From contig CAYOZJ010000002.1 in assembly GCA_964408485.1 (NCBI GenBank), positions 69,235-133,234 of the forward strand: 64,000 nt of DNA, given 5' to 3'. This DNA is from an uncultured Gammaproteobacteria bacterium. Its GTDB lineage: Bacteria; Patescibacteriota; Microgenomatia; Levybacterales; UBA12049. Below the pieces are notes generated by a model. That model made no database searches, was not told the DNA's origin, and saw nothing but the letters and a program-made list of their open reading frames with translations. This document shows, piece after piece, positions 5,568 to 64,000 of the stretch (within the stretch, counting starts at the first letter, position 1; each line of letters begins with the position of its first letter). Position numbers and translations under genes: made by a program.

Positions 5568-8024
5568 ATGGGTGATACAAAAAAAACATTGGTTCCAAAT
5601 TTTGCAGGGACACTGCGCGAAACTGTCTTTATGGATAGATATGCCTTAAAAGATAAAGATGGTTTGCCAATTGAGCATTCCCCTGAAGAGACATGGAAAA
5701 GAGTTGCATGGGGTATTGCGCAAAATGAAAAGCCAAAAGACCGAAAAGTTTGGGAAAAACGATTCTATGATGCAATGTCTGACTTTAAATTTGTTCCTGG
5801 GGGGAGAATTCTCTCAGGAGCAGGGACAGATTATCAGGTAACCTACTTTAATTGTTTTGTTATTCCATCTCCTAGGGATTCACGAGGTGCAATTTTAGAT
5901 ACGCTTAAGCAAATGGTAGAAATTATGGCAAGAGGCGGCGGCGTTGGATTTAATTTATCTTCACTCAGGCCACGAGGTGCACGAGTAAAAAAAGTAAATG
6001 GAACGTCCTCAGGTCCTACAAATTGGGCAGCACTTTATTCTGTCGCCACAAGAGACATTGTTCAGCAAGCAGGGACAAGACGCGGTGCACTCATGCTTAT
6101 GCTGTGGGATTGGCATCCAGATGTTGAGGAGTTTATTACAGTCAAACAAGATCTTTCTAAAATTAATGGAGCCAACCTTTCTGTTTGTCTGTCAGATGCA
6201 TTTATGGAGGCTGTCAAAGCAGATGGCGACTGGGAATTAAAATATCCTGATTTGGATGATCCAAAGTACGATAAATACTGGGACGGAGAATTGGATAAAT
6301 GGATCGAGCGGGGAGGAAAAGTAAAAGTCTACAAAACAATCAAAGCAAAATACCTCTGGGATCTTATTTGTACTGCTGCATGGAGAAGTGCAGAGCCAGG
6401 TCTTCATTTCTTGGATAGGTCCAATAAAAGAAGCAATACGCACTATTTTGAAAGACTAGTTGCAACAAATCCGTGCGGTGAGCAGCCACTTGGTGCATGG
6501 GCTGTTTGTAATTTAGGCGCAATGAATTTGTCTGCGTACGTGAAAGATTCTGACTTGGCAAAAGATATTCCCGGATGGTTTGATTACGAATCATTTGGAA
6601 AAGACGTTAAAGTTGCGATGCGATTTATGGATAATGTGATTGATAAAACGTATTACTTCTTTAAAGACAATGAAGACTGTGCAAAAGATATTAGACGTAC
6701 TGGGCTTGGTATCATGGGGTTAGGAGATGCACTAATAAAGATGCATTTGCCATATGGGTCTGAAGAGTCGCTTCCTGTTATTGAAAAAATCTTTCAAGTC
6801 CTTAGAGACAATTCCTATCAGGCATCAGTTGAGGTAGCAAAGGAAAAAGGAGCATTTCCGCATTTCCAAAAAGAGGAGTTTCTTAAGGGGTATCACATTA
6901 AAGCATTGCCTCAGGATATAAGGGATGGTATTGCAAAGTATGGTATTCGAAACGGTGTCCTCTTAACGATTGCACCAACTGGGACGACATCTCTTGTTTC
7001 CGGCGTCTCTAGCGGGGTTGAGCCAGTGTATGAATTTGCATTCAAAAGACATGACAGGTTGGGTGAGCATATGATTTATCATCCACTTCTTGAAGAATGG
7101 TTAGCCTCTCATCAGGGGCAGGATAGGCCAAAATATTTTGTCTCAGCAAATGATTTGACACCAATGGAACATGTGAAAGTTCAAGCAATCGCGCAGGAAT
7201 ATATTGATTCCTCAATTTCCAAAACAGTGAATGGTCCAAAAACAGATTCTATTGAAGATGTGAAAGAACTGTATATGGCAGCATATGATTATGGTCTGAA
7301 GGGCGTTACGTATATGCGAGATGGATCAAGGCAAGGAGTTTTGGAAAGAGTAGATGATAAAAAGGAAGAAACAGCGGCAGTAGTTCAACCAACACTTCCA
7401 ATGATGCCTATGCTTTCCAGGCCTCAAAAAATTGAAGGAGTGACCTATCAAACAGAAACCCCAATGGGAAGTACATTTATTACGATTAATCACACAGAAG
7501 ATGGACAACCTTTTGAAGTCTTTATTAATATTGGTAAAAGTGGCAGTGATGTTTTCGGAATGGCAGAGGCACTTGGTCGAATGATTTCAACAAACCTTCG
7601 CCTTAATAGTGTTTTGGCTCCAAGAGAGAGAATCAAGCAAATTGTTGCTCAATTAACTGGTATTGGTGGATCAAGAAGTGTTGGATTTGGAGCGAATAGA
7701 GTTAAAAGTCTCCCCGATGCAATTGCAAAAATATTAGCAACACATTACAACTTGTCAGTAAATGGCAAAGTAGAGGATAGGCAAGTTATTACAAAAGTTA
7801 TGACCGATGGTGTTGTTCCAGCTCCTGAAACACATATCTCAGCAGAAGAACATGCGTCAGCAGAAGAAGCACATCCAGTAGCGCAGTTAACACTTGAAGG
7901 GAAAATGGAAGCAGCATCGACGAATACTTCTTTATATGATATTTGTCCAGAATGTGGCGTGAGCGCGTTTGCATATGAAGACGGATGTAAAAAATGCTAT
8001 AGCTGTGGGCATTCAGAATGCTGA
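5568..8024 (+). CDS. nrdJ: class II (adenosylcobalamin-dependent) ribonucleotide reductase with C-terminal zinc ribbon
   Basis: Active-site TNPCGEQPL plus long RNR large-subunit homology. C-terminal CPECG...CKKCYSCGHSEC zinc ribbon. Immediately follows nrdR. Confidence 0.9.
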   Translation: MGDTKKTLVPNFAGTLRETVFMDRYALKDKDGLPIEHSPEETWKRVAWGIAQNEKPKDRKVWEKRFYDAMSDFKFVPGGRILSGAGTDYQVTYFNCFVIPSPRDSRGAILDTLKQMVEIMARGGGVGFNLSSLRPRGARVKKVNGTSSGPTNWAALYSVATRDIVQQAGTRRGALMLMLWDWHPDVEEFITVKQDLSKINGANLSVCLSDAFMEAVKADGDWELKYPDLDDPKYDKYWDGELDKWIERGGKVKVYKTIKAKYLWDLICTAAWRSAEPGLHFLDRSNKRSNTHYFERLVATNPCGEQPLGAWAVCNLGAMNLSAYVKDSDLAKDIPGWFDYESFGKDVKVAMRFMDNVIDKTYYFFKDNEDCAKDIRRTGLGIMGLGDALIKMHLPYGSEESLPVIEKIFQVLRDNSYQASVEVAKEKGAFPHFQKEEFLKGYHIKALPQDIRDGIAKYGIRNGVLLTIAPTGTTSLVSGVSSGVEPVYEFAFKRHDRLGEHMIYHPLLEEWLASHQGQDRPKYFVSANDLTPMEHVKVQAIAQEYIDSSISKTVNGPKTDSIEDVKELYMAAYDYGLKGVTYMRDGSRQGVLERVDDKKEETAAVVQPTLPMMPMLSRPQKIEGVTYQTETPMGSTFITINHTEDGQPFEVFINIGKSGSDVFGMAEALGRMISTNLRLNSVLAPRERIKQIVAQLTGIGGSRSVGFGANRVKSLPDAIAKILATHYNLSVNGKVEDRQVITKVMTDGVVPAPETHISAEEHASAEEAHPVAQLTLEGKMEAASTNTSLYDICPECGVSAFAYEDGCKKCYSCGHSEC

Positions 8025-8222
8025 TGCATTCATAGCAGTATGCAGTAAGAATTATGGGCATATTGCGTAGAGCATAAAGCATAATTCATATATTTATACA
8101 TTGGGCAAACACCGTGTAATTCGGTGGAAGTGCCGCTACTGTAAATCCAGAAAACCATGTATAAATCATTCTCGAGCAAGAACGTTTTTGGGCACGTCCT
8201 TCTCGAGAGAGAGGGATTTTTT

Positions 8223-23253: not shown

Positions 23254-24657
23254 ATGAAGATAAGCGAATTACATACAAAACGAATTGCTATTTTGGGTCT
23301 TGGTGTAGAGGGATTAGCAACGGCACAATATTTTTTAGAACATAAGATTGCCTTTTCCATTATTGATGAAAAGTCATTTACCGAACTTTCTGAAGGAGGG
23401 GATTTAAAGAATGCTTTAGAAAAACTTAAAGAGAATACTATTCCACTCGTTTTGGGAGAAGTTCCCACAAAAGAGCAGCTAGCTCAGTACGATGTACTTG
23501 TAAGAGCACCTGGAATCTCTCTGAAGAAAGATTATCTGCGAGGATTTAGCGGTAGCATTACTTCTGCAACTAAGCTCTTTTTTGACAATTGCCCTGGGAA
23601 AATTATTGGTGTAACAGGGACAAAAGGAAAGGGAACAACCAGCACATTGATCTATGAAATGCTTAAAAGTGCAGGAATCGACGCATATCTTGGCGGCAAC
23701 ATAGGACTGCCTCCATTATCATTTTTGGATACAGTAGATGATCAATCTATTGTTGTTCTGGAGCTTTCTAGTTTTCAATTAGAAGACCTTCAAAAAAGTC
23801 CCCACATTAGTGTCATGCTTATGGTAACGCAGGAACACTTAGACGGTTTTGGAAATCAAAATTATCACAGCTCAATTCGTGAGTATGTTGATGCAAAAAG
23901 AAATATTGTCAGATTCCAAACAGCAGATGATATGGCAATTCTTAATACAGACTATCCTGCCACTACAGAATCAGCTGGTGTTACCTCGGCTCAGGTTGCG
24001 TGGGTGAGTAGATACAAGCCTGTTGGAACAGGGTGCTTTGTGAGAGACAATGAGGTAATTCTTCGCAGCAATAATCAGGAGACCAAAGTAATTGACGCAG
24101 CTGATATTTTTCTTCCTGGAGGACATAATTTAGAAAATATCTGTGCAGCAACTATGGCTGCGTATTTTGCAGGCGTTGATGTTGCTGAAATTGCATCAGT
24201 TCTCAAGACCTTTAAAGGCTTAGAACACCGGTTGGAGTTGGTTAGGGAGTTGGATGGTGTTAGATATTATGACGATTCTTTCTCAACGGTTCCTGAGACT
24301 GCTATTGCTGCAATTCAAGCATTTAGTAATCCAGAAATTTTAATCTTGGGGGGGTCAAGCAAGAAATCAGATTTTACTCAGCTTGGAAAGCTTATTAGCG
24401 AAACACCAAATATAAAAGCAATTATTGGGATTGGAGTAGAATGGCCAGTCATAGAATCAAGAATCAAGAATCAAGAATCAAGAATAAAAATAGTGACAGG
24501 GTTAACAACCATGAAAGATATTGTTGAGACAGTCAGGAAATTAAGTGAGCCAGGAGATGTTGTGCTTCTTTCTCCAGCCTGCGCATCATTTGGGATGTTT
24601 AAGAATTACAAAGACAGAGGCAATCAGTTTAAAGAGCAAGTAAACAAATTAACCTAA
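23254..24657 (+). CDS. murD: UDP-N-acetylmuramoylalanine--D-glutamate ligase (carries in-frame repeat insertion)
   Basis: ILGLGVEGLATAQYF plus GVTGTKGKGTTSTLIYEML. Contains an inserted ESRIKNQESRIKI peptide from a GAATCAA tandem repeat. Confidence 0.9.
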   Translation: MKISELHTKRIAILGLGVEGLATAQYFLEHKIAFSIIDEKSFTELSEGGDLKNALEKLKENTIPLVLGEVPTKEQLAQYDVLVRAPGISLKKDYLRGFSGSITSATKLFFDNCPGKIIGVTGTKGKGTTSTLIYEMLKSAGIDAYLGGNIGLPPLSFLDTVDDQSIVVLELSSFQLEDLQKSPHISVMLMVTQEHLDGFGNQNYHSSIREYVDAKRNIVRFQTADDMAILNTDYPATTESAGVTSAQVAWVSRYKPVGTGCFVRDNEVILRSNNQETKVIDAADIFLPGGHNLENICAATMAAYFAGVDVAEIASVLKTFKGLEHRLELVRELDGVRYYDDSFSTVPETAIAAIQAFSNPEILILGGSSKKSDFTQLGKLISETPNIKAIIGIGVEWPVIESRIKNQESRIKIVTGLTTMKDIVETVRKLSEPGDVVLLSPACASFGMFKNYKDRGNQFKEQVNKLT

Positions 24658-36294: not shown

Positions 36295-37320
36295 TTGTCA
36301 TGGTATACTACAAAGTACATGAAAAAGTTACTTCTGATTGATGGAAATGCCATTTTACACCGTGCATTTCATGCCTATCCACCAGTATTTTCTGACAAAG
36401 AGGGTAATCCTACAAATGCTATTTATGGCTTTTATGCAATGCTTTTAAAAGTTATGGAGGAGGTAAAACCAGATTTACTCACCATTTGCTTTGATCAAGG
36501 TGCGCCGACTTTTCGCATGAATATGTATGCTGGGTATCATGCCAATAGGCCAAAAATGCAGGACACATTGGGAGTACAGGTCGAGCCCTTGCGTGAGTCT
36601 TTGCGTAAAATAGGAATTCCCGTTGAAGCAATCGATGGATATGAAGCAGATGATTTAATTGGGACATTATCTCATCAAGCGTCAAGCGTAAGGCGTAAAG
36701 GGGAAAGTTTGGAAACAATAATCCTAACAGGTGACAGGGATCTTTTGCAGTTAATTAACGAGCATACCAAAGTTCTTATGCCAATAACAGGAATTACGAA
36801 GTCTGTCTTAATGGATGAAGGAGCAGTTGAGGCAAAATACGGCATAAAGGCAAGTCAGGTAATTGATTACAAAGCCTTAGTTGGCGACCCGTCTGATAAC
36901 TATCCAGGTGTTGGGGGAATAGGTCCTAAAACAGCGGCAACACTTCTTAAAGAGTGGGAAACATTGGAGAATTTGTATACCCATTTGGGAGATATAAAAC
37001 CTGAGTTGAGTCAAAAATTAGCTCAAGATGCAGAGCAGGCAATGCTATGCAAGAAGTTGGCAACCATTCAGCTAGACGTACCTGTTCATTTAGATATAAA
37101 GAAAGCAGATGTAGACAATTTTTCTCTGGAAAAGTTTTTGGATATTTTCGAGCACTTCAATATTCACTCATTGGTTAAGAGGCTTAGTCTAGCGCTAGGA
37201 AGTGAAGCACCTATAACACGAAGCGAGACGAAGCAATCTAGTTTAAAGAAAGATTCTGGACAAGCCAGAATGACGAAAGAAGAAAAGAAGAAAGAGGATA
37301 GTCAACTAGAGCTACTTTAG
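36295..37320 (+). CDS. 5'-3' exonuclease (stand-alone Pol I 5'-nuclease/FEN domain) with repeat-derived C-terminal tail
   Basis: LLLIDGNAILHRAFHA and GDRDLLQL, H3TH region. The C-terminal ~40 aa (SETKQSSLKKDSGQARMTKEEKKKED) derive from repeat DNA. Confidence 0.85.
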   Translation: MSWYTTKYMKKLLLIDGNAILHRAFHAYPPVFSDKEGNPTNAIYGFYAMLLKVMEEVKPDLLTICFDQGAPTFRMNMYAGYHANRPKMQDTLGVQVEPLRESLRKIGIPVEAIDGYEADDLIGTLSHQASSVRRKGESLETIILTGDRDLLQLINEHTKVLMPITGITKSVLMDEGAVEAKYGIKASQVIDYKALVGDPSDNYPGVGGIGPKTAATLLKEWETLENLYTHLGDIKPELSQKLAQDAEQAMLCKKLATIQLDVPVHLDIKKADVDNFSLEKFLDIFEHFNIHSLVKRLSLALGSEAPITRSETKQSSLKKDSGQARMTKEEKKKEDSQLELL

Positions 37321-38300: not shown

Positions 38301-38393
38301 AGAAGAAAATTGCTCTATTGCTGAATTACTAAATTGTTCTAGAAAAACAATATAACAATTTAAGAATTTAACAATTAGTATAGTGAGATTGCT

Positions 38394-39446: not shown

Positions 39447-40727
39447 ATGCCTAGAATAGCCCTGGTTCACGATTATATTAAAGAATACGGTGGAGCGGAA
39501 AGGGTACTAGAGACTTTGCATGAAATGTATCCCAATGCACCTGTATTTACCCTAGTATATTGTCCAAAATTCTTAGGACCACATAAAGATAGATTTAAGA
39601 ATTGGGATATCCGCACATCATTTCTTCAGTCTATCCCTTTTAAAGAAAAATTTATTAGCATCTTTCGGCTTTTTGCCCCATTTATTTTTCCATTTTTCAA
39701 CTTTGCTGGGTACGATGTAATCATTGTAAGCGCAACAGGGGCATATAGTCCCAACGTAGTTGGGACAAGAGGTAAGAAGGAAGAGGTAAGAAGTAAGGAA
39801 AGTGACCATACGCCATACGCCATACGCCATACGCCGTATCACATCTGCTACTGCCACACGCCGCCCAGATATTTGTATGGATACGCAACAGCTAGAGAAC
39901 TAAAAAAGAATTCTCTTATTCGATTATTGGCAGAATGGATGAATAAATGGCTTGTGCGAGTAGACAAAAAGTCCAGTAAAAATGTGGATTTGTATATTGC
40001 CAATTCAGAAGAAGTACGAGCACGAATTAAGAAATTTTATAACAAAGATGCAATTGTTGTGTATCCACCAGTTGATGTTCCTTCAGTGTCATTCCTGCGA
40101 AGGCAGGAATCCAGGAAAGGAACTGGATCCCGGATCGGAGTCCGGGATGACAATTTTTATCTAGCAGGCGGGCGTCTTGCCAGGCCAAAGCATTTCGATT
40201 TAATCATCAAGGTAGCAAATGAATTAAAGTTGTCCCTCAAGATTTTTGGGAAAGGATTTGCAGGGTATGGAGAAGAGCTGTATGATTTGGCAAATAGACT
40301 ACAGCAAGCAGACTACAGTAAAGAAGCTGTAGTCGGTAGTCCGAAAGCTGTAAGCGTTATTACGTTTTTGGGAGAAGTAACAGATGAAGAAAAAATACAT
40401 CTTATGTCCGGTGCTAAAGCATTTATTATGAGTAGTGAAGATGAGGATTTTGGCATAACACCAGTTGAGGCAATGGGGGTTGGGACACCGGTGATTGCAT
40501 ATAAGAGTGGTGGACTTAAAGAAACAGTTATTGATGGCAAGACAGGAGTATTTTTTGACATGTTATCTGCAGAAAGTCTAATTGGGGCAATAAAGAAGTT
40601 TGAAGCCCTTCGACAAGCTCAGGGTAAAAGACTGTCTGAGAATTGTATTGCGCAAGCGCAAAAATTTAGCAAAGAGAACTTTGAAAAAGGAATTCGTTCT
40701 GTCATCTCTAAAATCTTGTCATCCTGA
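39447..40727 (+). CDS. glycosyltransferase family 4 (GT1-fold) with multiple in-frame repeat insertions
   Basis: MPRIALVHDYIKEYGGAERV N-terminus and C-terminal EDFGITPVEAMGVGTPVIA (E-x7-E region). Inserted peptides EEVRSKESDHTPYAIRHTPYH and SFLRRQESRKGTGSRIGVRDD. The stop lies inside a GTCATCCTGAG repeat. Confidence 0.8.
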   Translation: MPRIALVHDYIKEYGGAERVLETLHEMYPNAPVFTLVYCPKFLGPHKDRFKNWDIRTSFLQSIPFKEKFISIFRLFAPFIFPFFNFAGYDVIIVSATGAYSPNVVGTRGKKEEVRSKESDHTPYAIRHTPYHICYCHTPPRYLYGYATARELKKNSLIRLLAEWMNKWLVRVDKKSSKNVDLYIANSEEVRARIKKFYNKDAIVVYPPVDVPSVSFLRRQESRKGTGSRIGVRDDNFYLAGGRLARPKHFDLIIKVANELKLSLKIFGKGFAGYGEELYDLANRLQQADYSKEAVVGSPKAVSVITFLGEVTDEEKIHLMSGAKAFIMSSEDEDFGITPVEAMGVGTPVIAYKSGGLKETVIDGKTGVFFDMLSAESLIGAIKKFEALRQAQGKRLSENCIAQAQKFSKENFEKGIRSVISKILSS

Positions 40728-40942
40728 GCTTGCGAAGGATATATTCTTCACTTTGTTTAGAATGACAAAGGAAAAAGATTTCTCACTTCGTTCGAAATGA
40801 CACTCTTCTTACTTATTTCTAACCTCCTCTTACACAATATTAATTGTAATTTCATTTAAGAGTTCTATCCTGTCAGGAAGCTGTTGGGGAATCGTTGGCC
40901 ATAGGTCAAGTTAAAGATTCTCTGCAGGAATATAATTAGCTT

Positions 40943-43997: not shown

Positions 43998-44093
43998 TTG
44001 TTATATTGTTATCGCTCGCAATGCTCGCTTATTGTTACATGGTTAACAATTTAGCCATATAGCAATTTAGCAATTTTTTAACGCAGTTAGTCT

Positions 44094-44972
44094 ATGCAAC
44101 AATTTGACATAAAACAACTGAAACAGCTTTACATTCCACCAGCTGGATCTCATAAAGGGGACAATGGAAAGGTTATGGTTATTGGCGGAAGTCAGCTTTT
44201 TCATGCTGCATCACTTTGGTCTTTGGAAATTGCATCAAAAATTGTAGATATGGTTTTTTACTCATCAGTTGATGCAAACAATGCACTCGTTGAAAAAGAA
44301 AAGGAAGCATTTAGAAATGGGATTATTGTTCCAAGAAATAAAATTGAAGATTACATTGCAGAGGCAGATAGCGTACTTATTGGGCCAGGATTACCAAGAG
44401 AGAATGGCTACGAGGCAGGCGATGACGATACAAAAATTCTCACCGAAAAACTTCTTAAAAAATATCCCAATAAGCGATGGGTAATTGATGGTGGTAGTTT
44501 GCAGGTGATTAACCCTGACCTTATTCCACAAAATGCTATTCTTACGCCACATCATCAAGAATTTGAAAGACTGTTTGGAAAGCGTCAAGCGTCAAGCGTC
44601 AAGCGTAAAGGAGAGAAAGAGATTGCCGCGGTCGCTAAAGACTCCCTCGCAATGACGGTTGGGGAGATGGCAAAGAAATATCACTGTATTGTTTTACTGA
44701 AAGGTCCAGAAGATGTTGTTTGTTCGGAAAATGAATGTGTAAGAGTTCCGGGAGGTAATGCAGGTATGACAAAAGGTGGAACAGGAGATGTGCTTGCAGG
44801 GCTTACAGCAGCTTTATATTCCCAAAACGCTGACGCATTCTTAGTAGCAACTTCTGCAAGCTATATCAATAAAAAAACAGGTGAGTCTCTTTTTGAAAAA
44901 CAAGGCTATTACTTTAACTCAAGTGATTTAGTGAAGGAAATCCCAGGAGTCATGAAAGAATTACTGCTCTAA
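44094..44972 (+). CDS. ADP-dependent NAD(P)H-hydrate dehydratase / YjeF C-terminal carbohydrate-kinase-like domain protein
   Basis: GDNGKVMVIGGSQLFHAASL and GGTGDVLAG. Carries the insertion KRQASSVKRKGEKEIAAVAKDSLAMTVGE. Confidence 0.75.
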   Translation: MQQFDIKQLKQLYIPPAGSHKGDNGKVMVIGGSQLFHAASLWSLEIASKIVDMVFYSSVDANNALVEKEKEAFRNGIIVPRNKIEDYIAEADSVLIGPGLPRENGYEAGDDDTKILTEKLLKKYPNKRWVIDGGSLQVINPDLIPQNAILTPHHQEFERLFGKRQASSVKRKGEKEIAAVAKDSLAMTVGEMAKKYHCIVLLKGPEDVVCSENECVRVPGGNAGMTKGGTGDVLAGLTAALYSQNADAFLVATSASYINKKTGESLFEKQGYYFNSSDLVKEIPGVMKELLL

Positions 44973-47730: not shown

Positions 47731-49521
47731 ATGACCTTTGCGAAATTAGCCTCGTATTTTGAAAAATTAGAAGCAACTTCCTCCCGTTTAGAGCTTATCC
47801 GTATTCTCTCAGAACTCTTCAAAGAAATAAAAACTCCAGATGAAATAGAAAAGGTATGTTATTTGGTTCAGGGTCGTATTGCGCCATTTTTTGAAGCAAC
47901 AGAAATCGGAATGGCAGAACGGACTGTGGCACAGTCCGTTGCTACAGCATTTAATGTCGAAAAAGAGAAAGTCTTAAAAGAATATAGTAAGCGTGGAGAT
48001 TTAGGGTTGGTTACGTATGAGCTTGCGCAAGAAGTAAGAAGTAAGAATTATGAATCAAGAATAACCATAGATGAGGTGTTTGAAACTTTAATAAAAATAG
48101 CAAAGACTAGTGGGGAAGGAACTGTTGAAAAACGACTAACATTATTAACAGATCTTTTGCAAAAAGTAGACGCACTTTCAGCAAAGTTTCTTGTACGCAT
48201 TCCACTAGGTAATCTTCGTTTGGGAATTGGTGACCCAACTGTTTTAGATGCACTCGCGACAGTAAAATTGGGAGATAAAACCCAGCGACATTATTTAGAA
48301 GATGCATACAATAGGACATCTGACTTAGGACTTATTGCAAAAACTCTTTGGTCAGAAAAAAGCGCAATGAAAGCATTGGGTGCAGTCGAAAAATTAGAAG
48401 TAACAGTTGGTAAGCCAATTCGAAGCGAATTGTGCGAGCGTCTTCCTAGTCCTGAAAAAACAATAGAAAAAATGGGGACAGTGGATTCACAGTTTAAATA
48501 CGATGGATTTCGCGTACAAATTCATAAAAATGGAAATGAAATCTCGCTTTTTTCTCGTAATTTAGAAAATATGACCCATATGTTTCCAGAGCTTATAGAG
48601 GGAGCCAAGAGACAAATTAAAGCGCGTAGCGCAATTCTGGATAGCGAAGCATTAGCATACATACCTGAGTCTGAAGAATTTTTGCCTTTCCAGGAGACAA
48701 CAAAACGAAGACGTAAGCATAATATAGAAGAAACAATGGCCAAGCTTCCACTTAAGTCATTTGTTTTTGACATTTTGTATAAAGATGGCAAGTCACTTAT
48801 TGGCGAACCTTTAGAAAAGCGTTTGGAGATTTTGTCAAAAACCCTTCGGCCAGCTCAGGGCAAGCAGTTTAACGATAGTGTTCTTTTTCCAGCAGATACT
48901 AAAAAGATTTCTGATGCAAAGGTGTTATCTCTTATGCTTGATGACGCAATTTCTAAAGGCTTAGAGGGAATAGTAGTAAAGAAATTGAATAGTCTTTACG
49001 AAGCAGGCGCGCGCAATTTTAACTGGGTAAAGCTAAAGCGTAACCAGTCTGGTGAGTTAACAGATACGGTTGACTGTGTGATTTTAGGATACATTTTTGG
49101 CAAAGGAAAGCGAACAGCATTTGGCGCAGGAGCATTATTGGTTGGTGTGTATGATAAAGCATCAGATAGCTTTGTAACAGTAAGTAAGATTGGAACAGGA
49201 TTAACTGATGAGGAGTGGAAAAGTATTAAGGAAAGGACAAAAGGATTAGAACTTTCTCATAAGCCAGCTCGGGTGAGCTCTATTATAGAACCAAGTGTTT
49301 GGGTAAAGCCTGAGATTGTTATAGAGGTCTTGGCAGATGAGATTACAAGAAGTCCTATTCATACAGCAGGAGCTACTTTGGAGAACGGAAAAGTCGTTGA
49401 GCCAGGATATGCTCTCAGATTTCCACGGTTAGTTAACTTTCGGGATAAAGATAAAAAATCAGAAGATGCAACGGATGTGAAAGAGTTGATTGAAATGTAT
49501 AAGAGTCAAGGAAAGAAGTAG
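47731..49521 (+). CDS. ATP-dependent DNA ligase
   Basis: Adenylation motif KYDGFRVQIH (KxDG), OB domain. Inserted heptamer-derived QEVRSKNYESRI. Confidence 0.85.
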   Translation: MTFAKLASYFEKLEATSSRLELIRILSELFKEIKTPDEIEKVCYLVQGRIAPFFEATEIGMAERTVAQSVATAFNVEKEKVLKEYSKRGDLGLVTYELAQEVRSKNYESRITIDEVFETLIKIAKTSGEGTVEKRLTLLTDLLQKVDALSAKFLVRIPLGNLRLGIGDPTVLDALATVKLGDKTQRHYLEDAYNRTSDLGLIAKTLWSEKSAMKALGAVEKLEVTVGKPIRSELCERLPSPEKTIEKMGTVDSQFKYDGFRVQIHKNGNEISLFSRNLENMTHMFPELIEGAKRQIKARSAILDSEALAYIPESEEFLPFQETTKRRRKHNIEETMAKLPLKSFVFDILYKDGKSLIGEPLEKRLEILSKTLRPAQGKQFNDSVLFPADTKKISDAKVLSLMLDDAISKGLEGIVVKKLNSLYEAGARNFNWVKLKRNQSGELTDTVDCVILGYIFGKGKRTAFGAGALLVGVYDKASDSFVTVSKIGTGLTDEEWKSIKERTKGLELSHKPARVSSIIEPSVWVKPEIVIEVLADEITRSPIHTAGATLENGKVVEPGYALRFPRLVNFRDKDKKSEDATDVKELIEMYKSQGKK

Positions 49522-51950: not shown

Positions 51951-52002
51951 TTTGTTTATAAACAAATAAAAAAAGGATACGGTGAAAACCTGTGTCCTTT
52001 TT

Positions 52003-52235
52003 TGTCATTTCGAACAAAGCGAGAAATCTCATTCAAGTATTTTTCTTCTTCTGTACTTTTGTGCCGACAAAAGATACCAAAAACTCTCGCCAAGGTCTTG
52101 TTCGAGCTTTCAAAAAAGAGCTCCAAAGCTAAAAGTACGCAGTTCGCTTTCACTTTCTTTACGCTTTTATGCCCTTTTTCTTATGCACTCACTGCAAATT
52201 GGCGAATAAGAACCATTTACATGAGGAGTATAATA
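52003..52235 (+). repeat. ~200-bp dispersed repeat copy A (upstream of pth)
   Basis: Near-identical core to 63530..63745 (..CTCTCGCCA.G..CTTGTT..AGCTTTCAAAAAAGAGCT.CAAAGCTAAAAGTACGCAGTTCGCTTTCACTTTCTT.ACGCTTTT..). Confidence 0.7.
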
Positions 52236-52241
52236 AGACAT

Positions 52242-52856
52242 ATGAAATTAATAGTGGGACTCGGTAATCCAGGCGAAAAGTATGAGAAAACAAGACATAA
52301 CATAGGATTTATGGCATTGGATAGTTTCCTCAAAGATTTTGAGTCTACAAAAGATACGGTTTGGACAGATAGTAAAAAATTCAAATCAGATATTGCAGAA
52401 ATTGCGTGGCAACGACAAACTGATGGTGACAAATCTCATGACCCTGAAAAAGTTATTTTAGCCAAGCCTAAAACATATATGAATGATTCAGGTCTAGCTG
52501 TTAAATTACTGATAGATTTTTACAAGGTACAGCCAGAAGATCTGTGGATACTGCATGACGATGTGGATTTTCCTGCAGGATCTATGCGAATTCGATTAGG
52601 AGGAGCATCAGCAGGGCACAGAGGGATCATGTCTATTATTGAGCATTTGGGTACAGACCAATTTTATCGCTTTCGCTTAGGCATTGGGAGGCCGGGGGAA
52701 AGTGAACACAGTGGAGTAAGTCATTATGTACTGGATACCTTTAACCATGAAGACCACAGTAATGTAAGGGAACTTCTTAAGCGGACAAGCAAGGCTATTG
52801 AGCTAGGACTAGAAAAAGATTTAACCGCTGCAATGAACAAATATAACTCCAAATAG
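52242..52856 (+). CDS. pth: peptidyl-tRNA hydrolase
   Basis: MKLIVGLGNPGEKYEKTRHNIGF N-terminus. The track ORF extends upstream through the repeat, so 52242 is preferred. Confidence 0.85.
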   Translation: MKLIVGLGNPGEKYEKTRHNIGFMALDSFLKDFESTKDTVWTDSKKFKSDIAEIAWQRQTDGDKSHDPEKVILAKPKTYMNDSGLAVKLLIDFYKVQPEDLWILHDDVDFPAGSMRIRLGGASAGHRGIMSIIEHLGTDQFYRFRLGIGRPGESEHSGVSHYVLDTFNHEDHSNVRELLKRTSKAIELGLEKDLTAAMNKYNSK

Positions 52857-53527: not shown

Positions 53528-53577
53528 TTTTTCCTCCAAGGGTCTTTAGTTATTGTTTGTCTGCTATACTATCCTCA

Positions 53578-53858
53578 TGCAATCCATCAAGCAGGTTTTA
53601 GATAAATTCAATCCCACAACAGATAAATATATTTCCCGTGAATTTCAGAGCTTTGGCGTCCATTTAGCAGAGGCGCTTGATGACATGAAACATAAGTCAC
53701 TCTATATAAAAATGGCCAAAACAATTCATAGATCTATTCTTGAAAAAGCGCTTTCATTTTGTGTTGATAGTAATGCCAAAAGCAAAGGCGCTCTTTTTAT
53801 GTGGAAAGTGACACAATTACGCAAAGATTATAGCGCGAAGCTCAAAGAACAAAAGTAA
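53578..53858 (+). CDS. hypothetical small helical protein
   Basis: MQSIKQVLDKF... The track start 53553 is a TTG. Confidence 0.35.
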
Positions 53859-57687: not shown

Positions 57688-57817
57688 GTGTCATCCTGAG
57701 CAAGCTAGAGGATATATTCTTTCCCGACTCGGGACTAGGTTCGCAGAACCGTTGCACACGTTCAGAATGACAATAGGACTGGATCCCGGATCGGAGTCCG
57801 GGATGACAAATTAATAT

Positions 57818-58890: not shown

Positions 58891-59637
58891 ATGCATAACG
58901 AAAATATCATTGAGTTAAAAAATGTTTCTTTTTCGTATGGGGAAGAGGCAGTAATAGATAACATTAATTTGTCTGTCCATAAAGGTGATTACTTGGGCAT
59001 TATTGGGCCAAATGGAGGAGGGAAATCAACGCTTCTGCGTCTTATGCTTGGACTTTTAAAGCCAACTCATGGAGAGGTTTTGCTGTATGGGAAAAAGATT
59101 ACGGAATTTAAAGATTGGTCAAAGATAGGCTATGTCAGCCAACATGTAACGCATATTGATCCACATTTCCCTATGACAGTTGAAGAAGTGGTAAGTATGG
59201 GAAGGTATCCAAAAGTAGGGCTTTTTAGAATGCTCTCTCAAAAAGACAAAGATATTGTTAAAGAAGCAATTTGTCAGGTAGAAATGCTGCCATTTCGTAA
59301 CCGTCTGGTAGGAGACCTATCTGGTGGACAACAGCAACGAGTTTTTATTGCCAGAGCGCTGTCTGGTCAACCAGAAGTAATTCTTCTTGATGAACCAACG
59401 GTTGGTGTTGATGAAAAAACCCAAAAGCAATTTTATTCACTTCTTCAAAAATTGAATGTGGAGCTTAATTTAACTCTTATCTTAGTGTCTCACGAATTGG
59501 ATATTGTTGCTCATGAGGCAACAGAGATTGCATATATTAACCGCGAACTTGTCTATCATGGAATTCCTAAGAAATTTCTTCATAGTGAATATTTTGAAAA
59601 ACTAACAGGGAAGGGAGAACACGAGCATAGCTCGTGA
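58891..59637 (+). CDS. metal ABC transporter ATP-binding protein (ZnuC-like)
   Basis: Walker A GPNGGGKST, signature LSGGQQQRV, Walker B ILLDEP. The track ORF starts 58825 inside a repeat, so ATG 58891 is preferred. Confidence 0.85.
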   Translation: MHNENIIELKNVSFSYGEEAVIDNINLSVHKGDYLGIIGPNGGGKSTLLRLMLGLLKPTHGEVLLYGKKITEFKDWSKIGYVSQHVTHIDPHFPMTVEEVVSMGRYPKVGLFRMLSQKDKDIVKEAICQVEMLPFRNRLVGDLSGGQQQRVFIARALSGQPEVILLDEPTVGVDEKTQKQFYSLLQKLNVELNLTLILVSHELDIVAHEATEIAYINRELVYHGIPKKFLHSEYFEKLTGKGEHEHSS

Positions 59638-59735
59638 GAAGCAAGAATCATGAATTAAGAATTATGCAGAGGGTTTATTAAAAATAAAGTACCTTATATC
59701 CATAATTCATACTTCTTGATTCATAATTCATATTT

Positions 59736-62327: not shown

Positions 62328-62484
62328 AATAAAGAGTATACCGAGTTCTTAACAAATATGTCAAGAAACAAAAGCATATTTCTATTGCTAAATTACTATA
62401 TTGCTAAATTGTTATTAACAATATAAGAATTTGTTAATTTAACAATTTCGTTTTACTCAATGTGACAGTTGTTTGTAATACTAC

Positions 62485-63504
62485 ATGTATAGTAATGTAA
62501 AAGGTATGAGTAAAATAATCTTCTTTGAAGTACAAGAGTGGGAAAAGGAATTTTTAGAAAAAGCATTTGGGGAAAGGGCAGTGTTAACCGATAAAACATT
62601 AGATGCAACAAATGTTTTGGAATATAAAGACATAGAAATTGCTTCTTGTTTTCGAAATTCAACTTTTAATAAACAAGTTTTAGACCAGCTTCCTCATTTA
62701 AAATATATTACAGCTCGCGCAACAGGATTTGACCAGATAGATATTGCGTATTGCACAGAAAAGGGAATCGTTGTGAGTAATGTGCCAGCATATGGAGTGC
62801 ATACTGTTGCCGAGCATGCTTTTACGCTTATGCTTGCTTTAGCAAAAAAACTTATTCCCTCAATTGAGCGTACACGAAAAGGGGATTTCAGCCTGAAAGA
62901 TCTCATGGGAATAGATTTAAATACTAAAACACTTGGTATTGTTGGTGCGGGGAAGATTGGAACAGCGGTTATTCATATTGCCAGATGTTTTGGTATGCAT
63001 ATACTCATTCTTAAGCATCACGATGAAATAAGTGAAAATAGTAACATAGAATATGTTGATTTACCCACACTTCTGAAAAGATCTGATTTTGTTACACTCC
63101 ATTTGCCCCTTACCCAACAGACAAAACATATTATTAATAAGCAAAATATTAAAGAGTTTAAAAAGGGGTCGTACCTTATTAATACAGCTCGGGGAGGACT
63201 TATTGAAACAGAGGCAATTTTGGATGGACTGGAGAGTGGAATTTTGGCAGGAGTAGGACTTGATGTATTGGAAGATGAGAAAATGATTAGTGAAGAAGGG
63301 GAATTATTATCTAACAAGCCGCTACATGAGCATCCATCGGGGACAGAAAGAATTGAAATGGAGCTTCTTAAAAGAGACGATGTGCTCATAACTCCCCATA
63401 AAGCTTTTTATACACAGGAAGCAGTACACGAGCTTTTGGAAGTAACGAAAGAAAATATAGAGAAGTTTGAAAAAGGCGAGCCACAGAATGTTGTAGAAAG
63501 TTAA
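62485..63504 (+). CDS. D-isomer-specific 2-hydroxyacid dehydrogenase family protein
   Basis: NAD-binding GIVGAGKIGTAV and catalytic region ...TLHLPLT...NTARGGL. Confidence 0.85.
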   Translation: MYSNVKGMSKIIFFEVQEWEKEFLEKAFGERAVLTDKTLDATNVLEYKDIEIASCFRNSTFNKQVLDQLPHLKYITARATGFDQIDIAYCTEKGIVVSNVPAYGVHTVAEHAFTLMLALAKKLIPSIERTRKGDFSLKDLMGIDLNTKTLGIVGAGKIGTAVIHIARCFGMHILILKHHDEISENSNIEYVDLPTLLKRSDFVTLHLPLTQQTKHIINKQNIKEFKKGSYLINTARGGLIETEAILDGLESGILAGVGLDVLEDEKMISEEGELLSNKPLHEHPSGTERIEMELLKRDDVLITPHKAFYTQEAVHELLEVTKENIEKFEKGEPQNVVES

Positions 63505-63529
63505 CAGAAGCTTGATTCAGTCTCCTTTC

Positions 63530-63745
63530 ATTGTCATTTCGAACAAAATGAGAAATCTTTTCTTTTTAACTTCTCTTGTACCGACAAGAGAAGCAGAAGC
63601 TCTCGCCAGGCCTTGTTCCAGCTTTCAAAAAAGAGCTTCAAAGCTAAAAGTACGCAGTTCGCTTTCACTTTCTTAACGCTTTTCCGCTCTTTTTCTCTCG
63701 CAGTCACAGCGGATTGGCGAATAAAGACCGCGGAAAATTTACCTC
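63530..63745 (+). repeat. ~200-bp dispersed repeat copy B (upstream of partial ORF at 63780)
   Basis: See copy A at 52003..52235. Confidence 0.7.
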
Positions 63746-63779
63746 ATAGTTGTTGACTTTTTTCAAAAAGAGAGTAGAA

Positions 63780-64000
63780 TGCAAACCAGTATGGTAGTTG
63801 ATAGAGCAGAACAAGCAGCAGCAATAGAGGAAGCACATCAAGCGGCAGAAAGTTTATTAAGAGAAGTTACCCCCAACGAACAACGCAGAACTAGAGATGA
63901 GAATGGTGTCTACAGCGGATACTTTGGAGTAAATGGTACATCTATTGATGTTTTTCAAGATTCAACAGGACACGTAAAAAGCATACGTGTAAGATATCCT
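63780..64000 (+). CDS. hypothetical protein, 3' end beyond window
   Basis: ATG at 63780 (MQTSMVVDRAEQ...) continues to the window edge. Confidence 0.35.

Follow-up and report, generated by a model that had tools for sequence, protein, structure and literature searches.

The described systems closest to the element reported here are the BOX elements of Streptococcus pneumoniae and the ERIC/IRU sequences of enterobacteria, the REP/BIME sequences with their RAYT proteins (Y1 HUH), MITEs, and the 6S-type RNAs. The element belongs to a family whose members comprise a 5' hairpin (P0), a linker and a long imperfect hairpin (the 'rod') closed by a helix (P1). Like BOX and ERIC/IRU, these are discrete intergenic units of ~100-200 nt with no coding capacity; they are modular, with an optional module and one to three hairpin units, form a long imperfect palindrome, and occur in unrelated contexts, in both orientations and inside operons, with truncated and composite copies among them. 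They share no sequence similarity with BOX or ERIC, however, are far fewer per genome and are hosted by Patescibacteria; and, unlike BOX and ERIC, the family spans divergent lineages, displays many compensatory changes and carries a hairpin and linker outside the palindrome. REPs are 20-40 nt long, bear a 5' GT[AG]G motif and are present in hundreds of copies. The family resembles REP/BIME in placing a hairpin beside a short conserved single-stranded motif, in forming hairpin clusters, in occurring at gene ends in either orientation, and in keeping its pairing while its sequence drifts between lineages, but it differs from the REP/RAYT system in the size of its unit (160-210 nt) and its low copy number, and no RAYT was seen near any copy in the loci covered. 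With MITEs it shares a short noncoding nature, identical copies at unrelated sites, presence or absence that differs between relatives, and a long hairpin. In contrast to MITEs, it has no fixed terminal repeats, the two ends of P1 pairing with each other while their sequence covaries; it is asymmetric, P0 and linker being confined to one end; and neither a known parent IS nor a target-site duplication was seen.

6S RNA is a discrete RNA of ~180 nt that a genome carries once or twice, at conserved positions; two copies in one genome would have precedent. It too has a rod (~125-150 nt), one that combines a closing stem and an apical stem with a large, conserved internal loop. The family, on the other hand, gave no match to any 6S-type family of Rfam, has an extra hairpin and linker outside the rod and no consistent promoter or terminator, and its copies are dispersed, truncated, nested and non-syntenic. 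A 6S-like or other sRNA identity is possible but fits poorly with truncated, nested and non-syntenic copies and with missing promoters and terminators. Bridge RNAs and omega RNAs lie beside a recombinase or nuclease gene, and no such recurring gene was found within 5 kb of the copies. Patescibacteria genomes are tiny and streamlined, and the literature searched yielded no account of their noncoding content; a search covering structured RNAs of the CPR, 6S RNA, repeats and the module sequence found nothing relevant.

The window, the whole 64,000-nt stretch of DNA analyzed here, has a G+C content of 39% and contains two look-alike noncoding stretches, copy A (52003-52216) and copy B (63532-63731), to which an earlier note had drawn attention and which proved real, with an alignment far beyond chance. 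A blastn comparison aligned 52003-52209 with 63532-63724 at 80.2% identity over 207 columns (E = 1.8e-50), and identity rose to 87% over a gapless core of 122 nt (52093-52214 versus 63608-63729) that includes an identical run of 36 nt (52124-52159, read off the alignment). A 55-nt core pattern had exactly two occurrences in the window and none in shuffles. The shared starting module GTCATTTCGAACAAA..GAGAAATC (also given as TGTCATTTCGAACAAA..GAGAAATC) was recovered by pattern search at 52004-52028 and 63533-63557. As the earlier note had held, the element is not a simple palindromic module but a long, conserved, non-palindromic, noncoding unit, and copy A is in frame with pth, yielding an ORF of 284 aa (52002-52856) in which the true Pth start, MKLIVGLGNPG, lies at 52243. 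The distance of ~10-40 bp to an ATG claimed for both copies applies to copy A, which ends 28 nt before the pth ATG, but not to copy B, which ends 50-62 nt before the first candidate ATGs downstream (63780 or 63792). A coding reading was rejected: the frame is not conserved between the copies, indels shift it, and a search with the translated core found no protein.

The Pth encoded in the window is a PF01195 protein. Its relatives come nearly all from Patescibacteria MAGs of the Microgenomates/Levybacteria type, the closest being that of locus L003 (78% amino-acid identity), and the host genome is that of a Microgenomates/Levybacteria-like patescibacterium. Two contigs assembled from short reads and encoding exactly this Pth have their start within the identical core, a pattern to be expected when a repeat makes the assembly graph branch. 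An exact 21-mer from the core had no match in species-representative genomes or in JGI metagenomes, and the window-type core is thus rare.

Both copies are read here on the + strand and share the same anatomy. Copy A opens with an optional upstream 'GTCA' module, TGTCATTTCGAACAAAGCGAGAAATC, located by pattern search at 52003-52028, and continues with hairpin P0 at 52053-52077 (GTACTTTTGT-GCCG-ACAAAAG[A]TAC; fold of -7.7 kcal/mol, z = -3.5), the conserved linker CAAAAACTC at 52078-52086 (family consensus CA(A/G)AAGCTC), and the rod at 52087-52205, delineated by covariance model and folding. The rod is closed by P1, in which TCGCCAA (52087-52093) pairs with TTGGCGA (52199-52205), and contains the inner helices AAAAAG/CTTTTT, AAAGC/GCTTT and AAAGT/ACTTT; its fold was recovered on the minus strand (-36.5 kcal/mol, z = -2.4). 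A 3' tail, ATAAGAACCAT, follows at 52206-52216 according to pairwise alignments, which also revealed a tail motif, GGCGAA-N3-4-GAACC, common to copy A and three relatives (L087, L145 and L156). In copy B, the GTCA module TGTCATTTCGAACAAAATGAGAAATC (63532-63557; pattern search and alignment) precedes P0 at 63570-63593 (CTTCTCTTGT-ACCG-ACAAGAGAAG; -13.2 kcal/mol, z = -5.8), the linker CAGAAGCTC at 63594-63602, identified like that of copy A from its sequence and the family consensus, and the rod at 63603-63720, found by covariance model, whose single-rod fold was recovered on both strands. Its P1 pairs TCGCCA (63603-63608) with TGGCGA (63715-63720), its inner helices are AAAAAGAGC/GCTCTTTTT, AAAGC/GCTTT and AAAGT/ACTTT, and its tail (ATAAAGACC...) occupies 63721-63731 (sequence and pairwise alignments). 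P0 and linker of copy B, 41 nt in all, are 95% identical to positions 16966-17006 of L006. In a comparison of copies A and B, P0 differs on both sides at three pairs, against 87% identity of the rods, a combination suggestive of module exchange rather than point mutation.

Each copy occupies the interval from the end of its upstream gene to the promoter of the gene that follows. Upstream of copy A, a terminator-like hairpin with A7 and T6 flanks (51969-52003; -17.5 kcal/mol, z = -6.6), which was not among the sites listed by a consensus terminator scan, ends a membrane-protein gene, and copy A begins immediately after it. Downstream, a TATAAT box read from the sequence at 52230-52235 (+ strand) lies 7 nt 5' of the pth ATG (52243), suggesting a leaderless or near-leaderless pth mRNA that would start after copy A. 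Between copy B and the next gene lies a promoter-like TTGACT-16-TAGAAT arrangement at 63753-63780 (+ strand). These positions, between the upstream gene end and the next promoter, mean that neither pth nor the gene at 63780 has its copy as a leader.

Three approaches, namely a pattern scan of metagenomes, a covariance model and blastn searches of loci with relatives of pth, together recovered approximately 55 distinct relatives. The blastn searches uncovered diverged copies in L004 and L006, which disclosed the anatomy of the family: a 10-11-bp hairpin, P0, with an NCCG loop, a linker CA(A/G)AAGCTCTC, and the long-range helix P1. Both copies lack the GTCA module, which is thus an optional companion; modules of the same type, in the same position and orientation upstream of P0, accompany ~10 of 52 family members. 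A degenerate pattern for P0 and linker matched 90 metagenome stretches, ~70 of which were AT-rich true members (55 distinct sequences), the remainder being GC-rich coding sequences matched by chance. As the pattern itself fixes P0 and linker, the uniformity of these two parts among pattern matches is partly ascertainment. The hairpin-plus-linker pattern had no match in viral contigs, and blastn with copy B found none in plasmids and phages.

The full unit measures ~160-210 nt and comprises, in order, the optional GTCA module, a pyrimidine tract, a 10-bp P0 with its NCCG loop, the linker CA(A/G)AAGCUCUC and the rod, a long imperfect hairpin closed by P1 (UCGCCAA/UUGGCGA) with three to five inner helices. 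The two strands of its main internal loop carry near-identical sequences, UCAUGC(U/A)UUC. The apex of the rod tolerates insertions or near-complete deletion: some members have a G-run/C-run domain there and others a window-type CUAAAAG...CUUUCUUAACGC domain, extra apical hairpins are present in L086, L088, L099 and L135, and the rod is cut to a short hairpin in L153 and L133. Two subfamilies were distinguished, and halves of variant 2 (upstream, GTTCTTTT-TCCGC-AAAAGAAC CAAAACTCTTT; downstream, CTTAACGTCCTTTGTTCGATTGCAAG) flank complete variant-1 copies in L111, L113, L131, L137 and L143.

RNAalifold analysis of a mixed MAFFT alignment found P0 alone, and we therefore resorted to a subfamily alignment and a covariance model. 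In a plain MAFFT alignment of 16 members, RNAalifold predicted 44 pairs, 22 of them with compensatory changes. A covariance model, R1, built from these 16 members, none from the window, recognized both window copies at full length, copy B at 63569-63724 (82.7 bits, E = 6e-20) and copy A at 52052-52209 (70 bits, E = 1e-16), and nothing else in the 64 kb; when the metagenome loci were searched together with L004 and L006, it matched 87 times, and other Pth loci added one match (L023). In an alignment of 68 distinct rows, 92.9% of the cells at paired positions were standard pairs, compared to 73.9% in shuffles and 41-56% with slid partners; 38 of the 43 pairs showed double-sided changes, and the covariation score was 0.337 versus 0.108. 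Not one of 500 shuffles of this alignment reached the observed value on any measure. The 68-row alignment was fitted to R1, while the RNAalifold result on 16 members is independent of the model. P0, helix 1 of the family, had double changes in 8 of its 10 pairs, and P1 occurs in compensatory variants: TCGCCAA/TTGGCGA in the window, TCGTC/GACGA in L004, CCGCC/GGCGG in L006, and TCGTCAC/GTGACGA, TCGACGG/CCGTCGA and TCACCGA/TCGGTGA elsewhere in the family. Covariation is thus strong. In the secondary-structure prediction that the earlier note had called for, the window copies fold as P0 plus a single rod (P1, AAAAAGAGC/GCTCTTTTT, AAAGC/GCTTT, AAAGT/ACTTT), and single-sequence folds of the family lie well below those of shuffles on both strands (mean z ~ -3.5). 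The helices are thus kept by compensatory substitutions beyond what the controls produce, as in a structured RNA or single-stranded DNA.

As to which strand folds, raw folding energies were better on the minus strand in 24 of 25 members; a strand call on this basis was discarded, the difference being largely compositional and the z-scores equal (-3.5 and -3.6). An A.C mismatch on one strand corresponds to G.U (or G.T) on the other. Written in + strand letters, 39 strand-neutral pairs contained 8 G.U and 24 A.C, and the large alignment 56 G.U (16 of them in one pair) and 91 A.C. As A.C outnumber G.U mismatches in + strand letters, the complement of the window + strand is the better candidate for the folding strand, by about two or three to one, which is not decisive.

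The distribution of the copies is that of a dispersed repeat. Many pairs of members are 88-96% identical over ~168 nt within unrelated flanks (96% for L143/L163, 93% for L149/L100), and the edges of similarity are sharp, running from a few nucleotides 5' of P0 to GGCGAA or, in the window subgroup, to GAACC. L003 keeps the gene order of the window from 47.7 to 63.5 kb and is devoid of the element at both sites, that is, between the membrane-protein gene and pth and after the dehydrogenase gene; site B coincides with a synteny break. Other relatives carry the element elsewhere: L004 upstream of the orthologue of window gene 53553-53858, L006 directly after pth and again 6 kb further, and L023 830 nt after pth. 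A second copy in one locus, always in the same orientation, was seen in the window, L006, L096 and L117, the copy at 580-747 of the latter being truncated. Near-identical copies thus stand in unrelated contexts, and their presence differs between relatives. No direct repeats were visible at the sharp similarity edges, and the empty site of L003 was too diverged for base-by-base alignment. Copy number looks low: a single copy was the rule for loci of <=15 kb, and contigs as long as 0.1-2.1 Mb contained one exact match to the pattern; a rough estimate for the Microgenomates loci is ~1 copy per 100 kb.

The reading that we favor, to which we give an even chance of being right, is that of a non-autonomous, structure-constrained dispersed repeat of Patescibacteria, inserted twice in the window in gaps between a terminator and a promoter. 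That the family exists, that its helices are kept by compensatory changes and that near-identical copies lie in unrelated contexts are matters of observation, as are the gain or loss of copies between syntenic genomes, their occurrence in any orientation relative to genes, and their truncated, tandem and nested relatives. The unit would spread as a non-autonomous element, by transposition or by a copy-and-recombine route, and folding of a single strand, DNA or RNA, for which the complement of the window + strand is the better candidate, would be required for its propagation or tolerance. Its effect on expression, if any, would be generic, the hairpin acting in read-through transcripts as an insulator or stabilizer, a role that has been proposed for REP, ERIC and BOX elements. 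Weighing against a repeat, terminal inverted repeats of the transposase type were not found, nor were a target-site duplication, an autonomous parent or a cognate transposase; the copy number is seemingly low; covariation so pervasive in different lineages would more typically mark a functional RNA than selfish DNA; the conserved single-stranded linker and internal loops hint at a specific partner; the seeming universality of the relatives' P0 and linker is in part ascertainment; and the strand call stands at only about two or three to one.

The earlier note had proposed that the element is a shared 5' leader or riboswitch-like regulator of downstream + strand genes. Both window copies do lie upstream of + strand genes, and transcription could read through copy B from the dehydrogenase gene, no terminator being seen from 63504 to 63532. 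Nonetheless, promoter-like boxes stand between the element and both start codons, the pth gene of L003 is without the element, and across the ~52 members the flanking ORFs adopt all four orientations (12 divergent, ~10 and 8 tandem in the two directions, 8 convergent), so that copies elsewhere are not preferentially upstream of genes; the downstream genes are unrelated to one another and about half are convergent. There is no terminator or SD-sequestering expression platform, and a comparison of the window copies and 23 family loci with Rfam 15 gave no match at gathering or permissive E-values, to riboswitch and leader families or any other. A leader is, accordingly, highly improbable. A MITE carrying a promoter, another of the note's suggestions, fares no better, as neither strand shows a promoter consensus within the element or at a constant spacing to it. 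Among the options offered, a MITE-like repeat or an ncRNA comes closest to what was found.

An ncRNA in the strict sense would make the copies a multi-copy family of trans-acting small RNA genes, each its own transcription unit, with the linker and internal loops pairing with targets or binding a conserved protein. The very strong covariation, an apex whose length varies as in bona fide structured RNAs, the conserved single-stranded segments, the low copy number, and the asymmetry of G.U and A.C mismatches, which implies one particular folding strand, all speak for such genes, as do good promoter-like boxes at a fixed 11-12 nt upstream of P0 in a few members (L146, L088, L099 and L084) and the reduced member L153, which ends with a short hairpin and T-run like an sRNA terminator. 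Most copies, however, have no consistent promoter on either strand. A promoter scan of both strands showed no positional peak, with a mean best score of ~7 of 13 in each direction, the background level. The terminator scan listed none at the two window copies and no terminator-like site after the element; 3' flanks are mostly A-rich, and a U-tract is missing after the element in most members, T-runs being confined to reduced ones such as L153 and L141. The element, in other words, is not a GC-rich hairpin with a U-tract of the intrinsic-terminator kind. Moreover, the promoter hints point to the + strand and the mismatch asymmetry to the minus strand, and copies that lie inside operons (rpsJ-rplC), are truncated or nested, or are absent from the syntenic sites of the closest relative are not what small RNA genes would lead one to expect. 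We regard such genes as possible, and as the foremost competitor of the dispersed repeat, while doubting that they are the answer.

The neighborhood of the copies bears on a different alternative, namely an orphan guide-type RNA (IS110 bridge RNA or TnpB/IscB omega RNA) or a solo IS200/IS605-like end, in which P0 and linker would be the site for a trans-encoded recombinase or nuclease. HUH/Y1 enzymes typically recognize a conserved hairpin with a conserved single-stranded segment after it, and guide-adjacent hairpins have the same layout, which P0 and linker would match; the dispersal of the element at low copy number, the lack of visible target-site duplications and the near-identical sequences on both strands of the main internal loop are likewise compatible with it. 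Against it, the sequences up to 5 kb from the ~52 copies contain no recurrent ORF of transposase, recombinase or TnpB-like type, and a second hairpin resembling a left end was not found. In the same interval, no neighbor protein family recurs beyond a few orthologous loci, and clustering of 276 neighboring ORFs ruled out a partner gene. Genes around the element, moreover, show no orientation bias (119 co-oriented versus 99 anti-oriented), though the replication-coupled mechanism of IS200/IS605 predicts one, and the IS605-orfB and HEARO families of Rfam gave no match. Such an orphan guide or IS end is therefore quite improbable.

The neighbors themselves are housekeeping genes, recognized by eye from their translations, including rho, mreB and transketolase; by the same means, the element was placed between tuf-rpsJ and rplC in L101 and between recA-recX and rny in L113. 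In L101 (3589-3766) and L102 (14073-14240), a member separates rpsJ (S10) from the gene after it in the S10 ribosomal-protein operon, and at the L102 site two small ORFs of 104 and 92 aa, possibly a toxin-antitoxin pair, are also inserted.

Placement next to gene ends also prompts the thought of a cis element domesticated by the host and working in either orientation once co-transcribed with its neighbors, as a 3'-UTR stabilizer, an RNase processing site, or a terminator or insulator that lacks a U-tract. A gene end reading into the element lies within 100 nt of ~14 copies on the + side and ~17 on the minus side, the same rod folds on both strands, and convergent gene pairs abut the copies of L100, L141 and L147. 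Yet nothing reads into the 12 copies that lie between divergent genes, termination would be harmful for the copy inside the S10 operon, the genome has canonical terminators, with copy A just beyond one of them, and the conserved linker and loop sequences would be left unexplained. On balance, a domesticated cis element seems unlikely.

The family is uncatalogued, with no Rfam match and no published description found. Besides a dispersed repeat, we tentatively consider, at well under an even chance, that the family forms a novel patescibacterial class of structured RNA. Its members would be multi-copy riboregulators or, alternatively, orphan RNAs of a guide-like kind, and the copies would move or duplicate as units; were they guide-like, a trans-encoded protein would read their conserved hairpin and linker. 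Integron attC sites, 5S rRNA, SRP RNA, tmRNA, T-box, retron ncRNA, group II intron remnants and boxB-boxA antitermination sites (only GCUCU being shared) were set aside on anatomy alone. A discrete unit of ~170 nt that dozens of compensatory changes keep foldable, although it is scattered, duplicated, truncated and nested, would constitute either a type of structured dispersed repeat not described before in this radiation or a new class of RNA. In practical terms, the element breaks short-read assemblies and leads gene callers to extend N termini falsely, the 284-aa 'pth' ORF being an instance, and covariance model R1 provides a direct handle for a genome-wide census and for metatranscriptome mapping.

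Several further observations concern the family and its surroundings. An insert of ~40 nt, the hairpin CAC[A/G]CTTGTCAAGCAAG[T/C]GAACTCCTTTCAGTCCGTTCC, occupies the identical apical position at unrelated loci, in the apical loop of L086 (~6700-6740) and in L135/L155. The elements most closely related to these, in L107 and L170, do not have the insert, which could be either an optional domain or a mini-hairpin that is itself mobile. P0 and linker followed by much longer or unalignable rods were seen in L097/L136/L172, L103, L140, L144/L162, L154, L147/L158 and L114, on contigs that include one of 2.1 Mb and some that appear marine by their record names, and the range of the family, or of its 5' part at a minimum, may be wider than Microgenomates.

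TATAAT-like boxes 6-10 nt 5' of start codons occur at 52230-52243 in the window and, in the same arrangement as read by eye, at ~17180-17192 of L006, ~6048-6060 of L004 and ~5038-5052 of L003, an indication that this lineage commonly has leaderless or near-leaderless mRNAs. The region upstream of pth in L003 (5038-5153) contains, next to its TATAAT box, ATGAAACTACTTGTTGGCC (MKLLVGL...), which looks like a duplicated, out-of-frame pth start ~100 nt before the real pth ATG.

Other repeats populate the window. A third copy of the GTCA module lies on the minus strand at 40777-40801 without the long element, within a cluster (40735-40802, minus strand) of three adjacent GTCA-type hairpin modules, TGTCATTTCGAACGAAGTGAGAAATC, TGTCATTCTAAACAAAGTGAAGAATA and the inverted TGTCATCCTGAGCTTGCGAAGGAT, that share the same frame and have different stems with matching changes on both arms. 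These modules resemble what we take to be a very widespread short repeat of the form GTCA, stem, GAGCGAAGCGAG, complementary stem and TC. The widespread GTCA-type repeat gives rise to spurious small ORFs in many phyla. A 35-nt repeat, ACTGGATCCCGGATCGGAGTCCGGGATGACAATTT, is 97% identical between 40122-40156 and 57778-57812; read as its reverse complement, it forms a further GTCA-type hairpin (TGTCATCCCGGACTCCGATCCGGGATCC). Units of 7-8 nt (AGAATCA, TCAAGCG, AACAATTTAGC/TAGCAAT) make up short arrays at eight sites of the window (24453-24493, 36675-36704, 38346-38376, 44045-44075, 44581-44621, 48030-48070, 59637-59677 and 62384-62447); similar arrays lie just upstream of promoter-like boxes in L113 (TAGTTGC, ~2935-2975), L146 (three copies of CTTGCTA) and L145 (TAGCAAT-like), and such arrays may be upstream promoter elements or arrays of binding sites. 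Finally, an AdoCbl-II (cobalamin) riboswitch aptamer was detected on the + strand at 8093-8165, with a score of 44.3 bits that is above the Rfam gathering threshold.
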